The notes under the pieces: model-generated
The model's database searches: none
What the model saw: only the letters and a program-made list of their open reading frames with translations
Told to the model about the DNA's origin: nothing
In this document: positions 13,824 through 50,232 of the stretch, piece by piece
Layout of the letters: every line of letters begins with the position of its first letter
How positions within the stretch are numbered: position 1 is the first letter of the stretch
Assembly: GCA_946548715.1 (NCBI GenBank)
Contig: CAMNPZ010000002.1
Coordinates: forward strand, 2,908 to 66,907
Source of the DNA: an uncultured Candidatus Saccharibacteria bacterium
Lineage (GTDB): Bacteria; Patescibacteriota; Saccharimonadia; Saccharimonadales; Saccharimonadaceae
Length of the DNA stretch: 64,000 nucleotides
Reading direction: 5' to 3'
Position numbers and translations under genes: made by a program

Positions 13824-13834
13824 CCATTCAAGTT

Positions 13835-13859
13835 AAAAGGCGCCATCTTGGCGTTTTTT
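13835..13859 (+). terminator. Terminator after tRNA-Leu
   Basis: aaaaggcgcca-tct-tggcgtttttt. Confidence 0.65.
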
Positions 13860-13874
13860 CGTGCTTGCTCGATC

Positions 13875-14215
13875 AATAATCGCGCTGCGCACGAAGAAAA
13901 CACCAATCTGACGCCTTTTAATCTTGAATGGAACGTTGGTAGAATTGGCGATTTTAGTTAACAAATTGATATGTGCGAGAAAATACCACCTCAGCGGCTT
14001 TTAATCTCAAATGGCAAATAATCGCGCTGCGCACGAAGAAAACACCAATCTGACGCCTTTTAATCTTGAATGGAACGTTGGTAGAATTGGCGATTTTAGT
14101 TAACAAATTGATATGTGCGAGAAAATACCACCTCAGCGGCTTTTAATCTCAAATGGCAAATAATCGCGCTGCGCACGAAGAAAACACCAATCTGGCGGCT
14201 TTTAATCTTAAATGG
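13875..14215. repeat. 142-bp tandem repeat (2 full copies + partial third) containing five copies of a degenerate 35-bp unit
   Basis: aataatcgcgctgcgcacgaag starts at 13875, 14017 and 14159; 35-bp unit ending cttttaatctYRaatgg at 13897, 13980, 14039, 14122, 14181. Confidence 0.95.
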
Positions 14216-35618: not shown

Positions 35619-35878
35619 CGGTGAACTCGGCGGAGCTTGTTTCGCGCTTCTCGTCACCAATAAAAACAAGACGCAAGCGTCTTCTTTTTATTGGTGATCT
35701 CGGCGGGAGCTTGTTTCGCGCTTTGCGCGAAACAATTCGCAGGGCGTCGTCTCGAAATATCCAAAACTAGTTTTGGATATTTGTTCGGCTCCTATTGCGA
35801 GCGAACCATACGGGTTCGCCCCCTGCCAAAATTGTCAGAATAAAAAAATAAAACCCAAAGGGTTTATTTTTTTTATTC
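35619..35878. repeat. Hairpin-rich region with two extra copies of the tRNA-Glu 3' end and a module shared with the intragenic palindromic elements
   Basis: tggtgatctcggcgggag (35692-35709) vs tRNA tggcgatctcggcgggag (35879-35896); degenerate copy 35619-35635; module 35737-35800. Confidence 0.85.
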
Positions 35879-35953
35879 TGGCGATCTCGGCGGGAGTCGA
35901 ACCCGCGTTGTCGGGATGAAAACCCGATGTACTAACCGTTATACTACGAGACC
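35879..35953 (-). tRNA. tRNA-Glu(TTC)
   Basis: ggtctcgtagtataacggttagtacatcgggttttcatcccgacaacgcgggttcgactcccgccgagatcgcca. Confidence 0.97.
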
Positions 35954-45508: not shown

Positions 45509-47341
45509 ATGTTTAAGAAGAAAAATCGAAGCAAGAAACGAACACGTGCGATGCTGTCGGCGTATTCGATTATTATGATTTTGATTATTTTGCTTGGCAT
45601 TTTGTCACATGTATTGCCAAGAGCAAAGTATATGCCAATTGAATCAAATGAGAACCATCCGGCAGTCGAAGTCGGTCCAGGTGAGTGGGAGGGTGAGATG
45701 CCCACTGGTGGGCCTGCTGCTTTGCAATCGGGAGAGACGCCTGAAAATTTGGCATTGCCGGAAGGCGAGTCTTTTGCTCCTATGGTGGGTGATGAGACGA
45801 CCAATGAGGGTCAGCCTGGTCCAGAATCCCGTATGCTAACTGATGCGCCGGTGTCGGATGATGAAATGTCGAATCGGAGTATTGAAGAGACTGTGGTAAC
45901 CGGTGAGGAGGTGACAACTGATGGCGTAGCTGAAGATGTCATGCTGATTGCAGCGGAGCCCGAAACATATGACACGTTGGAAGCTTGCGAAGAAGAGTAT
46001 GGTGAAGATGGCTGTACGATTGTTGAAGGCTCTGGCGTTGAGGGTGCTGAATTATATCAAGTATTAATGGCGCCGATTTTAGGGTTTGAAGATGCGATTG
46101 ATGTTTGTATCTTTGTAATGATTCTCGGTGGATTCCTTGCTGTGATGGCAAAAACCAAGGCATTGGAAACCGGTATTAAACTTCTCGTAAAGAAAATGCA
46201 TGGCAAAGAATACTTACTGATACTCCTCTTGATGTTTATTTTCTCAGTAATGGGTACGACATATGGATTTCTTGAAGAAAGCGTTGGTTTCTACGTATTG
46301 GTCGCGGCGACAATGTTTGCGGCTGGACTCGACCCGCTAGTCGGTGTGGCGACGATTTTGCTAGGTGCTGGCTCCGGCGTGCTTGGGTCTACGATTAATC
46401 CATTTGCGACTGGGGTGGCTATTTCGGCAATGAAAGATGCTGGCGTGGAATTTAACCAGGGAACGGTAATCCTGATTGCGGTAGTATTATGGCTAACTAC
46501 GCTTGCAGTTGCTGCATTCTTCGTAGTACGATACGCGAAAAAAGTGCAGCGAGACAAGGGTTCGACATTCTTGTCGCTGAGAGAACAGGCTGCAGCGGAA
46601 AAACGTTATTCGAAATACTTGAGTGCGAAGGATGACAGCCTAAGGTTAACTGGTCGACAAATTGCATCTTTGATTGTGTTCGGTTTGACATTTGTAGTAA
46701 TGATTGTTGGGTTCATCCCGTGGGGTGAATTTGGAATAACGTTCTTCGATAATTGGACTGGTTGGTTGACTGGTGCATCGCTCGGTAATTGGTGGTTCTA
46801 TGAAGCGGCACTTTGGTTCTTGATTGCAGCGATTATCATTGCAATCATCAATCGTGATGGCGAGCACGGATTCATTGATACATTTGTCGATGGGGCGGAT
46901 GACATGGTTGGGGTAGTGTTGGTTATTGCGGTAGCGCGTGGCGCTTCGGTGTTGATGGCTGAGACTTCAATGGATTCGTTTATCATTGTGAATGCTGCAA
47001 ATTGGTTGGAAACTTTACCAGAAATGCTATTTGTGCCTTTGAACTATGTACTCCATATTGTACTGTCCGTACTGGTGCCATCTTCGTCTGGACTTGCTAC
47101 GCTTTCGACGCCAATTATCGCGCCGGTTGCGGCACAGCTTGGTTACAGTACAAATGTGGCAGCTATGACAATTGTATCTGCAAATGGTCTCGTAAACCTT
47201 ATTACGCCAACTTGTGGTGCGATTATGGCTGGGTTGGCGCTAGCGAAAGTTGATTACTCGACTTGGTTTAAGTGGGGGATTCGAGTGGTAGCATGCATCG
47301 CGGTTGTCAATATTGTAGTGCTTTGCTTATTCTCATTGTAG
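45509..47341 (+). CDS. arcD: YfcC/ArcD-type arginine-ornithine antiporter with a ~130-aa acidic insertion
   Basis: GTTYGFLEE, GSTINPFATG, GFIPW, LVPSSSGLA, NLITPTCG. Confidence 0.9.
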   Translation: MFKKKNRSKKRTRAMLSAYSIIMILIILLGILSHVLPRAKYMPIESNENHPAVEVGPGEWEGEMPTGGPAALQSGETPENLALPEGESFAPMVGDETTNEGQPGPESRMLTDAPVSDDEMSNRSIEETVVTGEEVTTDGVAEDVMLIAAEPETYDTLEACEEEYGEDGCTIVEGSGVEGAELYQVLMAPILGFEDAIDVCIFVMILGGFLAVMAKTKALETGIKLLVKKMHGKEYLLILLLMFIFSVMGTTYGFLEESVGFYVLVAATMFAAGLDPLVGVATILLGAGSGVLGSTINPFATGVAISAMKDAGVEFNQGTVILIAVVLWLTTLAVAAFFVVRYAKKVQRDKGSTFLSLREQAAAEKRYSKYLSAKDDSLRLTGRQIASLIVFGLTFVVMIVGFIPWGEFGITFFDNWTGWLTGASLGNWWFYEAALWFLIAAIIIAIINRDGEHGFIDTFVDGADDMVGVVLVIAVARGASVLMAETSMDSFIIVNAANWLETLPEMLFVPLNYVLHIVLSVLVPSSSGLATLSTPIIAPVAAQLGYSTNVAAMTIVSANGLVNLITPTCGAIMAGLALAKVDYSTWFKWGIRVVACIAVVNIVVLCLFSL

Positions 47342-47509
47342 AATATTTAAATCTATAAGATTTCTCAGCGATAAAATTTCACCAAGATAAAAATTACAAC
47401 GGTAGGCGGATTTTGTCGGAAATTGCAGTTTCCTCCAAAATCCGTACTAGTTGTAATTTTTATATGGGAAATTTTATATGCTTCGAAATCTTATAGATTT
47501 GATATTCTA
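47339..47509. repeat. ~170-bp AT-rich foldback (imperfect palindrome), copy 1
   Basis: gaatatttaaatctataagattt / aaatcttatagatttgatattc; ataaaaattacaac / gttgtaatttttat; cggattttg / caaaatccg. Confidence 0.9.
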
Positions 47510-47583
47510 AGATAATAAGTATGGCCTAAATGTGGTTATGCTTTGAAATGCTATTTTTATTGTTAATATGCTATAATAAGGTT

Positions 47584-49194
47584 ATGGATAAACTACAGTT
47601 TGATGGGCCTGTGGTGCTCGCGATATTAGATGGGGTAGGATTGGCGCCGGATGCGCCTGGTAATGCAGTGAGTCGGGCGAGGACGCCGTTTCTAGGACGA
47701 GCTGCGCAGAGTTGTTTGCATGTGGCACTTGATGCTTCGGGAGAAGCTGTGGGGCTATTGCCTGGACAGATGGGGAATTCGGAAGTTGGTCATAATACGA
47801 TGGGGTCGGGTCGAGTGATTAAGCAAGGAATTGCACATATTGAGGAGGCGTTTGCGACTGGAGAAGTGTTTGAATCTGATGCATGGAAAGGGGCGATAGC
47901 GCGGGTTAAAACTGAGAATGATGCGCACAAGGAGCAAGGTGCAACTCTACATTTTGCAGGGATTTTTTCGGATGGGGGAGTGCATAGCCATATTTCACAT
48001 CTTGAACAGATGGTTATTAAAGCATACGAGCAAGGTATTAGACGAATGAGAGTACATGCAGTGTTTGACGGACGTGACGTACCGCCGCAATCTGAACCGA
48101 AATTTATCAAGAGATTTGAGCAATTTGTGAATAGATTTGCGGATGCAGATATTCGGATTGCTTCGGGTGGGGGACGGATGGTGTGCGTGGCTGATAGATA
48201 TGAAAATGATTGGACTGTGGTAGCGCGTGGATGGGATATGATGGTAAATGGCGAGGCTGATTATTATTTCCATTCAGCAGAGGAAGCTGTGACGATTTTG
48301 CGTCGAATCAATCCGAGTGTACAAGATCAGGATTTGCCGCCTTTTGTGGTGGTAGATGAGAATGAGCAACCGGTAGGACGGATCCAGAAGGGTGATGCTT
48401 TGATTTATTTTGATTTTAGAGCGGATAGGGCGATTGAAATTGCGCAGGCATTTACGTATTGGGATTTTCCGTATTTTAATCGAGGTGAGTATACACCAGA
48501 TGATGTGTACTTCGTGGGAATGACGGAATATAATTCAGATACACATGTGCCGGAGCATCGTTTGGTGGAGCCGGTGAAGATTACAGAGACGTTGAGTAAG
48601 TTTTTGGGCGAACATGGCGTGAGTCAACTTGCGATTTCGGAGACAGTGAAATATGGGCATGTGACGTATTATTTTGATGGCAATAGCTATGATAAGGCGC
48701 CGCTCGAAGAGTTCGTAGAAGTAGAATCTTACGTAGAACCGTTTGAGACAAGACCATGGATGCGATGTGCGGAAATTACCGACACGGTAATTCGGGAAAT
48801 GCCGAATTATCGATTTGTGCGGGTAAACTATCCGGGGGGCGATATGGTGGGACACACGGCAAATATGGAAGCGACGATTGTGGCAATGGAGTCGATTGAT
48901 TTGTCGCTCGCAAGATTGGCGGCTAAGGTTGATGAACTTGGGGGGTGTCTAGTGATAGTGGCGGACCATGGGAATGCGGAGGAGCTGTTGGACGCTGAAG
49001 GGCGGCCGAAGACGGCGCATACAACCAATAAAGTGCCATGTATTATATATGATGAAACGAAAAATCGTGAGTTATATCAGTTAGCCGATGTGGTAAATCC
49101 TGGGCTTGCTAATCTTGCGGCGACGGTGGCGACGCTACTCGGGCTTGATGACTATCCGGAACAATGGAGCCCTTCGTTAATAAGAACTAAATAG
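47584..49194 (+). CDS. gpmI: 2,3-bisphosphoglycerate-independent phosphoglycerate mutase; start revised from 47530
   Basis: LAILDGVG, GQMGNSEVGH, DGGVHSH, DGRDV, DFRADRA, DMVGHT, ADHGNAE, HTTNKVP. Confidence 0.96.
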   Translation: MDKLQFDGPVVLAILDGVGLAPDAPGNAVSRARTPFLGRAAQSCLHVALDASGEAVGLLPGQMGNSEVGHNTMGSGRVIKQGIAHIEEAFATGEVFESDAWKGAIARVKTENDAHKEQGATLHFAGIFSDGGVHSHISHLEQMVIKAYEQGIRRMRVHAVFDGRDVPPQSEPKFIKRFEQFVNRFADADIRIASGGGRMVCVADRYENDWTVVARGWDMMVNGEADYYFHSAEEAVTILRRINPSVQDQDLPPFVVVDENEQPVGRIQKGDALIYFDFRADRAIEIAQAFTYWDFPYFNRGEYTPDDVYFVGMTEYNSDTHVPEHRLVEPVKITETLSKFLGEHGVSQLAISETVKYGHVTYYFDGNSYDKAPLEEFVEVESYVEPFETRPWMRCAEITDTVIREMPNYRFVRVNYPGGDMVGHTANMEATIVAMESIDLSLARLAAKVDELGGCLVIVADHGNAEELLDAEGRPKTAHTTNKVPCIIYDETKNRELYQLADVVNPGLANLAATVATLLGLDDYPEQWSPSLIRTK

Positions 49195-49206
49195 ATACTC
49201 TTGTAA

Positions 49207-49378
49207 TATTTGAAGCTAAGCAACTAGATTTCTCAACTTGAAATCTCGCCGTATAAAAATCACAACAGTTAGTCGGACTCGTCCTGGTATTTCAGTACCA
49301 GCTACTCGTCCGTAACTGTTGTGATTTTTATCGGGCGATTTCAAAATGTTTCGAAATCTAGTTACTTAGTTTCAAATA
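49207..49378. repeat. ~172-bp AT-rich foldback, copy 2 (homologous to copy 1)
   Basis: tatttgaagctaagcaactagatttc / gaaatctagttacttagtttcaaata; ataaaaatcacaacagtta / taactgttgtgatttttat. Confidence 0.9.
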
Positions 49379-49401: not shown

Positions 49402-50232
49402 CTAATTGCCGCAGACGACGTTGTTGGCGTGGAGCCAACCTTCGACGGAACCGCCGTCGAGGTATTCGCCTTTGGTGGTCGCAATGCGCATGGTGCCGCC
49501 GTTTTTGATGTAATCATCGATGGGGTCGGTGACCATGTATTCTTGGTCTTTGGGGCCGAAGTCGTGTTCGTTGACGTATTTAACAATGCGTTGTAAGAGT
49601 TCGGGCGACATGATATATTTGGAGACATTGATGAGATTAGAGGGGGCTTCTTCGGGGGTGGGTTTCTCGACGACATCTATCAATTTGCCGTCTTTGGCGG
49701 AAAGAACGCCGTATTTTTCGACGTCTTGCTGGTCGATTTCGACGCCGAGAATGGCGGAGTCGGTATCGGATTGCAGTGATTTGATGAGGGCTTCGCTGGC
49801 GGATTCGCCACCTGGATTCCAGATAAAGTCGTCGCCCATGAACACTAAGACTGGTTCATTGAGGTGGTATTCTTCTACTACCATGGCGATAGGTACGGCA
49901 GTGCCATATTTACCGGCTGGATCTTGGACGGTATAGTGAATGGTGACATCGTCAGGTAGGGTTTTGGCGAGTTTGAGACGATCTTCTTTGCCGCGGTCGA
50001 TGAGATATTGATTGAGGGCGAGGTTGTCTTTGTAGAATTCTTGGACTTGGCAGGGTTCGACGTTTGATATAACCATGTAGATATCTTTGACGCCAGCCTT
50101 GATAAGCTCTTGAACTGAGTAATCGACGAGGGGACGATTGCCGACTGGGAGCATGGATTTCTCGATGATTTTAGTGATTGGTAAACGACGAGTACCCCAG
50201 CCTGCGACCGGGATGATAGCTTTTGTAATCAT
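49402..50232 (-). CDS. Sugar-phosphate nucleotidyltransferase (GalU-like)
   Basis: KAIIPVAGWGTRRLPITK, GKYGTA, VEKP, YLDGG. Confidence 0.88.
   Translation of the reverse strand: MITKAIIPVAGWGTRRLPITKIIEKSMLPVGNRPLVDYSVQELIKAGVKDIYMVISNVEPCQVQEFYKDNLALNQYLIDRGKEDRLKLAKTLPDDVTIHYTVQDPAGKYGTAVPIAMVVEEYHLNEPVLVFMGDDFIWNPGGESASEALIKSLQSDTDSAILGVEIDQQDVEKYGVLSAKDGKLIDVVEKPTPEEAPSNLINVSKYIMSPELLQRIVKYVNEHDFGPKDQEYMVTDPIDDYIKNGGTMRIATTKGEYLDGGSVEGWLHANNVVCGN

Follow-up and report, generated by a model that had tools for sequence, protein, structure and literature searches.

Introduction

The Rickettsia palindromic elements (RPEs) are palindromic repeats of ~100–150 bp that form several families in a small, host-dependent genome, lie both between genes and in frame within housekeeping genes, and have no known transposase (PMC10969869). 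The ERIC/IRU and SPRITE/BOX/RUP repeats (enterobacteria, pneumococcus) are imperfect palindromes of ~100–200 bp at transcribed intergenic gene 3′ ends; their copy number varies between lineages, they insert into each other, and effects on termination or mRNA stability have been proposed or shown for them (PMC10969869). Here we examine two long AT-rich foldbacks that flank gpmI in a 64,000-nucleotide stretch of DNA (the window) from an uncultured Candidatus Saccharibacteria bacterium. An initial annotation had read them as possible cassette-like recombination sites around gpmI. We find that they are a bacterial interspersed palindromic repeat and should not be annotated as integron-like sites. 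The evidence strongly favours copies of a dispersed mobile repeat over cassette sites. With slightly less confidence, we read each foldback as a separate insertion of a modular palindromic repeat that is non-autonomous and confined to a single genus of Saccharibacteria (Ca. Nanosyncoccus-type).

The RPE, ERIC, SPRITE-like, BOX and RUP repeats are the closest known kinds. Like the RPEs, the family studied here is a palindromic repeat between genes, and has related forms in frame in an aminoacyl-tRNA synthetase and other proteins. This is a likeness only, drawn without sequence comparison, and the host belongs to an unrelated phylum of the candidate phyla radiation (CPR). Unlike in RPEs, the centre is most conserved rather than the ends, the nesting is layered with separately exchangeable modules, and landing appears to be at centres of dyad symmetry. 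We know of no conserved TC/TC mismatch and no inverted copy of the host flank (seen here in a GC-rich relative only) among the RPEs. The ERIC, SPRITE, BOX and RUP repeats have defined termini and, where known, direct TA-type duplications, and SPRITE has a terminator-like stem with a U-run, whereas the present family lacks a U-run, has arms peculiar to each copy and has ambiguous boundaries. The family also resembles miniature inverted-repeat transposable elements in being short (171–219 bp), non-coding and an inverted repeat over its whole length; its outermost arms are copy-specific rather than conserved, any target duplication lies in palindromic flanks (0–8 bp), and one GC-rich relative has an inverted repeat of at least 9 nt. 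In the literature searched, no mobile repeat family is described for Saccharibacteria or other CPR bacteria.

Structure and copies of the palindromes

Window positions are coordinates of contig C2 of the host genome (G000: 781 kb, 26 contigs, 45% G+C, 95.6% complete) minus 2907. The limits of each palindrome were set by aligning the DNA of its left arm with the complement of its right arm, and those given in the initial annotation for two long imperfect palindromes proved exact: copy 1 (171 bp) occupies 47339–47509, and copy 2 (172 bp), between the convergent gpmI and nucleotidyl transferase (NTP-transferase) genes, occupies 49207–49378, neither being assigned to a strand as a whole. Folded as single strands, the copies reach −79.4 (copy 1) and −86.0 kcal/mol (copy 2) by RNA folding, compared with −27.6 and −31.3 kcal/mol for shuffled sequences. 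Each forms a single long hairpin, with z about −14.6, and none of 200 shuffles folded equally well. The copies are homologous, in agreement with the annotation. A repeat search gave the long inverted arms of the copies and a direct match of 51 nt between them, and a four-way alignment of both copies in both orientations has a mean column identity of 74%; the aligned parts include ATAAAAATYACAAC...CGGA / TCCG...GTTGTRATTTTTAT and AGATTTCTC...TTCGAAATCT. It was also correct that the foldbacks much exceed the length that a terminator requires. No T-run follows either copy, and a terminator scan calls neither. A search of the 64-kb window with Rfam 15 at the gathering score returned tRNAs only and no match to the foldbacks.

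Within each palindrome, a junction of the form TTCTC...TCGAA produces a 2 × 2 TC/TC mismatch. Read on the + strand, its left half lies at 47365–47366 in copy 1 (partner 47483–47484) and at 49233–49234 in copy 2 (partner 49351–49352). Copy 2 also contains, at 49278–49308 (+), the ctcgtc-hairpin-ctactcg motif reported in the annotation, as CTCGTCC-TGGTATTTCAGTACCAG-CTACTCG, an inner module that it has in common with the nested module of GC-rich elements found inside genes. Copy 1 has a variant inner module at 47407–47444 (+), CGGATTTTG, TC, GGAAATTGCAGTTTCC, TC, CAAAATCCG, with a second TC/TC mismatch. A covariance model of the family core (R1) matched copy 1 at 47360–47491 with 104.8 bits on the + strand and 53.2 on the − strand, and copy 2 at 49228–49359 with 141.8 bits on + and 55.5 on −. 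Copy 1 is the most divergent family member in the genome, and its subfamily is also found in G044, G055, G058 and G071.

In the host genome BLAST and nhmmer detect members of the AT-rich family, some 11 of them full and 5 partial, spread over 10 contigs. Besides the gpmI flanks the family occupies ~15 places, behind unrelated genes such as recR and ldh, and the copies are scattered singly, with no array. Whole palindromes measure 171–219 bp and consist of a conserved core of ~115–135 nt inside copy-specific arms that pair within each copy. Which strand a copy lies on is recognisable (~150 bits for one strand versus ~45 for the other), because a common set of asymmetries runs through all copies: the TC/TC mismatch, left-arm bulged bases, a CGTT/ATTTT loop and, further in, a TCGTC/GCTACTC loop. 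Two copies end at contig ends, which might suggest that the palindromes are assembly artefacts of a metagenome-assembled genome (MAG). Most copies are internal to their contigs, however, and the same elements occur in dozens of independent assemblies from different studies; we give this explanation next to no credence.

By simple open reading frame (ORF) calls, the intergenic copies adjoin at least one gene 3′ end, with one exception, which lies between divergent genes. Seven of 11 copies are between convergent genes, an arrangement found at 15% of junctions (p = 3.8e-4), and for several convergent pairs both stop codons lie within the two arms. The orientation of the element is independent of gene direction. 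The family is part of a larger population of foldbacks: a conservative sliding-window fold found at least 43 long unbranched hairpins, about 1% of the genome's DNA, of which 10 belong to the AT-rich family and 12 lie inside ORFs. Other foldback families are present too, for example at C11:23853–24103, where a foldback of 251 nt (−135 kcal/mol) belongs to yet another family; RGIG5646 (L156) has an AT-rich member at that place.

Among the Ca. Nanosyncoccus-type Saccharibacteria of the ruminant gut that make up the genus, R1 matched 29 of 61 genomes, with up to about 18 matches in a genome when both strands are counted; in 97 other genera of the order it matched nothing. With an exact pattern, a scan of 185,579 species genomes (bacteria and archaea, one per species) found the element only in Candidatus Saccharibacteria / Candidatus Nanosyncoccus MAGs, mostly from sheep and goat gut. 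In these MAGs the cores are 88–99% identical to copies described here, and the coding flanks 74–83%. The element was not found in viral and phage collections.

The gpmI locus in related genomes

Upstream of gpmI is a gene for a C4-dicarboxylate carrier of the DcuC family (610 aa; 45509–47341, +; Pfam PF03606, E = 8.6e-80), and its TAG stop codon (47339–47341) provides the first bases of the copy 1 palindrome. gpmI itself (47584–49194, +; Pfam PF01676 and PF06415) encodes a cofactor-independent phosphoglycerate mutase of 536 aa. The convergent NTP-transferase gene downstream (49402–50232, −; Pfam PF00483) encodes 276 aa. A terminator scan found no other terminator-like site at the gene ends beside copies 1 and 2.

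The reading of the initial annotation was that attC-like single-strand recombination sites make gpmI a mobile cassette. The foldbacks share with attC sites a folded single-strand form and a polarity conferred by conserved unpaired bases; there is one long imperfect hairpin on each side of gpmI, the gene has its own promoter, and, of 17 genera of the order that were sampled, only this one yielded gpmI. Comparison of the locus across the genus contradicts the idea. gpmI was detected in 23 of 24 same-genus genomes and is thus not variably present as a cassette might be, the order DcuC-type carrier, gpmI, NTP-transferase recurs across the genus without AT-rich elements, and nhmmer finds no family copy at any of 26 gpmI loci taken from relatives. 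Two more relatives, found through the exact-match scan for the element, have one copy each near gpmI, which is bracketed in neither; in UBA2866 an element of another subfamily lies directly behind gpmI only, with arms that begin at the CTAG of the stop codon, and in RGIG5646 an AT-rich element lies past the gene next to gpmI. Bracketing on both sides was seen only in the present genome, and the ~15 other copies stand behind unrelated genes. The sequences disagree as well. The junction TCTCAAC/GTTTCGA is unlike the attC consensus RYYYAAC/GTTRRRY, since in T-CTC-AAC...GTT-TCG-A the TC/TC mismatch would fall inside the R boxes; attC sites keep their outer R boxes constant and have variable centres, and the AT-rich family does the reverse. 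No cassette array was seen, and integron integrase (intI) was not among the genes searched for. Because gpmI synteny extends across the genus without the elements, the cassette idea fails; we rejected it on synteny, consensus and dispersal, and regard it as very improbable.

The leaderless gpmI promoter proposed earlier was upheld. An extended −10 box, TGCTATAAT (47569–47577, +), ends 6 nt before the gpmI ATG, a layout that is conserved in relatives: their carrier–gpmI gap holds a short ordinary terminator (AAAAATAGCCC...GGGCTATTTTT) followed by TGNTATAAT, 6–7 nt and ATG. Conservation of TGNTATAAT, 6–7 nt and ATG in five genomes (window 47569–47586; L011, L013, L015, L019) suggests leaderless transcription of gpmI. 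In the window, the sequence GCTATTTTTAT at 47550–47560 (+) appears, from comparison with L011, L013 and L019, to be the remnant of the 3′ half of an ancestral short intrinsic terminator, and copy 1 would then have replaced that terminator before the gpmI promoter.

Several further features of the locus were noted. The TGNTATAAT-type leaderless layout occurs at other genes of the genus as well (e.g. L049, C3:32660). The NTP-transferase gene is convergent with gpmI here, in G011 and in RGIG5646, with stop codons 3–4 nt apart in the latter two, and co-directional in most other relatives (L010–L028), indicating that the gene was inverted; this inversion is independent of the foldback, because G011 has no foldback. 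In G010, G014, G016 and G023 (L029–L036) the gpmI match is split at about residue 259/301 inside one frame of 578–628 aa by an in-frame insert of ~40–90 aa, perhaps an intragenic foldback element. No gpmI homologue at E ≤ 1e-20 was found in the 16 other genera of the order (G025–G040), and it may be at the base of the genus that phosphoglycerate mutase of this type was acquired.

Sites before and after insertion

At the recR site, relatives without an insert have convergent stop codons that overlap in TTATAA (empty allele TTTATAATTG). In the present genome the site reads TTTATAA, then an element of ~160 nt including its own outer arms, then TTACAATTG. The same site is filled by a GC-rich element in G021 and by a third family in G017, so that the same gene ends have been occupied repeatedly, here by three families. 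In G021 the right-hand gene has acquired a new tail, ENRQAL*, copied in reverse complement from the final codons of recR; the inverted flank copy is at least 9 nt long (GAGAACCGA) and equals the ancestral recR sequence. At the ldh site the stop codons abut in relatives, and here CTATAG stands on both sides of the insert. A third site, C23:8294–8301, is empty in this genome and consists of a perfect hairpin with 14-bp arms, GAATAAAGAATTGC and GCAATTCTTTATTC. In a Nanosyncoccus MAG of another species a 115-nt core, flanked on either side by TTGCGCAA, fills this hairpin at its exact centre. That core is 99% identical to the C16 copy of the host genome, with flanks 78–82% identical.

On balance, these sites favour the view that insertion targets are centres of dyad symmetry, either stop codons that overlap (TTATAA, CTATAG) or a hairpin already in place (TTGCGCAA). 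IS1397 and ISKpn1, which are autonomous IS3-family elements with a transposase, target the loops of palindromes in REP/BIME units. Insertion at the apex of an existing extragenic palindrome is what the present family would have in common with them; here the insert is a non-coding hairpin, for which no transposase was found.

The filled sites also bear on whether the hairpins could have grown in place from ancestral terminators by template switching and become similar through gene conversion. At the copy 1 site relatives do have a terminator, L014 and L091 show a terminator-like centre in another foldback family, and arms extend and homogenise in place. The empty alleles at the recR and ldh sites, however, have 0–10 nt between the stop codons and offer no starting material, a 99% identical core is present at a non-homologous site in another species in which flanks are about 80% identical, and the copy number ranges from 0 to about 18. 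Growth in place is accordingly judged quite improbable, and insertion of a mobile repeat is preferred.

The foldback family with a terminator-like centre (A-run, GC stem, T-run) has members of ~190–230 nt in L014 (G013) and L091 (G017), which fill, in G013, the position upstream of gpmI and, in G017, the recR site. In genomes with an 'empty' recR site (L084 etc.), recR and the gene that converges on it have similar ends (..ALENRTNL* and ..ALEQL*) and the palindromic TTATAA stop overlap in common, perhaps a relic of an older inverted duplication.

Concerted change of the arms

Ten paralogues were compared pair by pair. Standard pairs make up 96.7% of pair cells, with 43 two-sided against 2 one-sided changes, values that none of 500 shuffles reached. 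Nearly all pair changes swap a Watson–Crick pair for a different one; there were 2 wobble intermediates against 43 double changes. Transitions at non-conserved positions show no strand bias (about 14 versus 10), as counted on DNA arm alignments, a count based on RNAfold being biased by the folding itself. The orthologues C16 and L159, from two species, have flanks and core in common and differ in their outer arms (TAATTGC versus GAATAGTTT). Each arm pair is self-complementary, including in length, and the species differ even by indels. Members of a subfamily are also found in frame in an aminoacyl-tRNA synthetase of ~821 aa and in proteins of 409, 509 and 544 aa; the host-genome orthologues of the synthetase and of the 409-aa protein are empty. 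In the in-frame synthetase copies of three species the arms extend into conserved host codons on both sides and carry lineage-specific compensatory differences.

Strong covariation, conserved internal loops and a position directly 3′ of stop codons would also be expected of functional structured RNAs, that is, cis-acting 3′-UTR elements or small RNAs under selection for folding, with spread being secondary. Read on the opposite strand, moreover, the TC/TC mismatch is a tandem GA/AG, a common RNA motif. Against this stand the independence of orientation from transcription direction in tandem contexts, the near absence of wobble intermediates, the lack of strand bias among transitions, the translation of related forms in frame within housekeeping genes, and the absence of any Rfam match. 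We consider selection on an RNA unlikely to be the primary explanation.

The concerted arm changes fit copying of one arm from the other by template switching. Template-switch mutations are known to create and repair hairpins, giving one-step compensatory changes, arm extension and reverse-complement copies of flanks (PMC8794818). The 43:2 ratio of double to single changes, the arms matched in their indels and the inverted recR codons of G021 all resemble these products, but the process has been described for local stem repair and not for the spread of a 115-nt unit to new loci (PMC8794818). Even divergent subfamilies keep the fixed bulges and the TC/TC mismatch, an argument that something also recognises the folded form.

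Relation to the GC-rich intragenic elements

The initial annotation had placed the foldbacks as AT-rich members of the structural family of the GC-rich elements inside genes. The part of this claim that stood is architectural. The junction (arms, TTC, TC, core, TC, GAA, arms) is present in 7 of 10 full AT-rich copies and, as the annotation had in part observed, in GC-rich intragenic elements, namely in four of the six in the window. A strict scan of the genome gave 14 junctions, each enclosing either a GC-rich core of ~70 nt or an AT-rich core of ~117 nt, and a search of the genome for 'empty shells' (TTCTC...TCGAA with palindromic arms and no core) found none. Since every junction encloses a core, the idea that TC/TC is a simple 2-bp target duplication is left unproven.

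The inner module CTCGNC-hairpin-CTNCTCG is likewise common to the AT-rich family and the GC-rich elements, with covarying stems. Motifs of the CTCGTC-hairpin-CTACTCG type with a stem of at least 6 bp number 13 in the genome, 9 in the AT-rich family and 4 in GC-rich elements; the bare inner-module pattern occurs 33 times, compared with about 6 in shuffled sequence. What did not stand is a direct covariance-model match: R1 against the GC-rich elements of the window gave 9–14 bits (E 0.3–6; best 13.7 bits, E 0.34), which is not significant. In relatives, R1 detected intermediate in-frame intragenic forms with the same junction and inner module at E values of about 1e-22 to 1e-27. From these shared sequence features we accept a common superfamily of AT-rich and GC-rich elements at the level of architecture and motifs.

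Spread and possible role

The observations may be combined as follows. The element would land at a centre of dyad symmetry by a gene end, producing a nested hairpin with a conserved core in copy-specific arms. The arms then change in concert, with the bulges and the TC/TC mismatch staying fixed. We infer that a folded single strand is the form in which the element moves or is recognised, or else that template switching during replication copies it. Once inserted, the hairpin probably serves as a two-way 3′-end structure, either a transcription stop or an mRNA stabiliser. The more specific proposal of a terminator-like role for the foldbacks is put forward tentatively and is somewhat doubtful.

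Several points weigh against one part or another of this account. The flank repeats TTATAA/TTACAA, CTATAG and TTGCGCAA are all palindromic, and direct and inverted duplications of 0–8 bp are therefore indistinguishable. The empty alleles at recR and ldh do not contain the copy-specific outer arms, which must have travelled with the element or been added in a separate step. The dyad-centre model is based on three sites, and the species compared are ~75–85% identical in the flanks, such that multi-step histories are possible. Copies 1 and 2 both lack the U-tract that follows the stem of an intrinsic terminator. As to enzymes, the Y1/RAYT transposase (PF01797) is not in the host genome, while 6 genomes of the genus that have PF01797 lack the element; and no mobilising enzyme was found among the Y1 transposases and serine recombinases looked at, other transposase families, DDE included, not having been searched.

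With no Y1 transposase in the host genome, mobilisation of the REP/REPIN-RAYT or IS200 type was rejected. A serine recombinase was also considered: a non-palindromic dinucleotide between inverted half-sites would explain TC/TC, and large serine recombinases are encoded in 40 of the 61 genus genomes, one of them in the host genome. Integration by this route was rejected as well, resolvase genes being absent from element-rich genomes such as G061, G071 and G006. An SbcD homologue is absent from the host genome (95.6% complete), although the same search was positive in 13 of 14 control genomes; a missing SbcCD would let long palindromes persist.

A transposase-free route can be envisaged, speculative as it is and in our view rather unlikely, in which a replicating strand switches to a donor hairpin, copies it, snaps back, copies a few bases of its flank in reverse and returns to the template. 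Such strand switching would insert a hairpin at a dyad centre together with an inverted flank duplication; repeated, it would build onion-like nested palindromes and rewrite the C-termini of convergent genes, and near-identical cores could thereby move from one co-resident Nanosyncoccus species to another. The TC/TC mismatch would then be either the mark of a structure-specific protein still to be identified or a scar of the process.

Whatever the route, the mobile-repeat reading implies that these elements replace terminators and that convergent genes gain stop codons, as well as new tails at their C-termini, from them. Some essential enzymes have acquired internal peptides from related forms. 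In strongly reduced genomes the elements thus contribute to change in genes and proteins. The combination of empty and filled sites, concerted arms and no visible transposase offers a workable case for asking how RPE-type repeats move, and whether template switching can spread hairpins beyond repairing them.

Other inverted repeats in the window

Two further inverted repeats were seen in the window. A 25-nt arm at 13833–13857 has its inverted partner twice, at 13897–13921 and 14039–14063. A palindrome with 46-nt arms at 35811–35905 overlaps a tRNA at 35882–35953.

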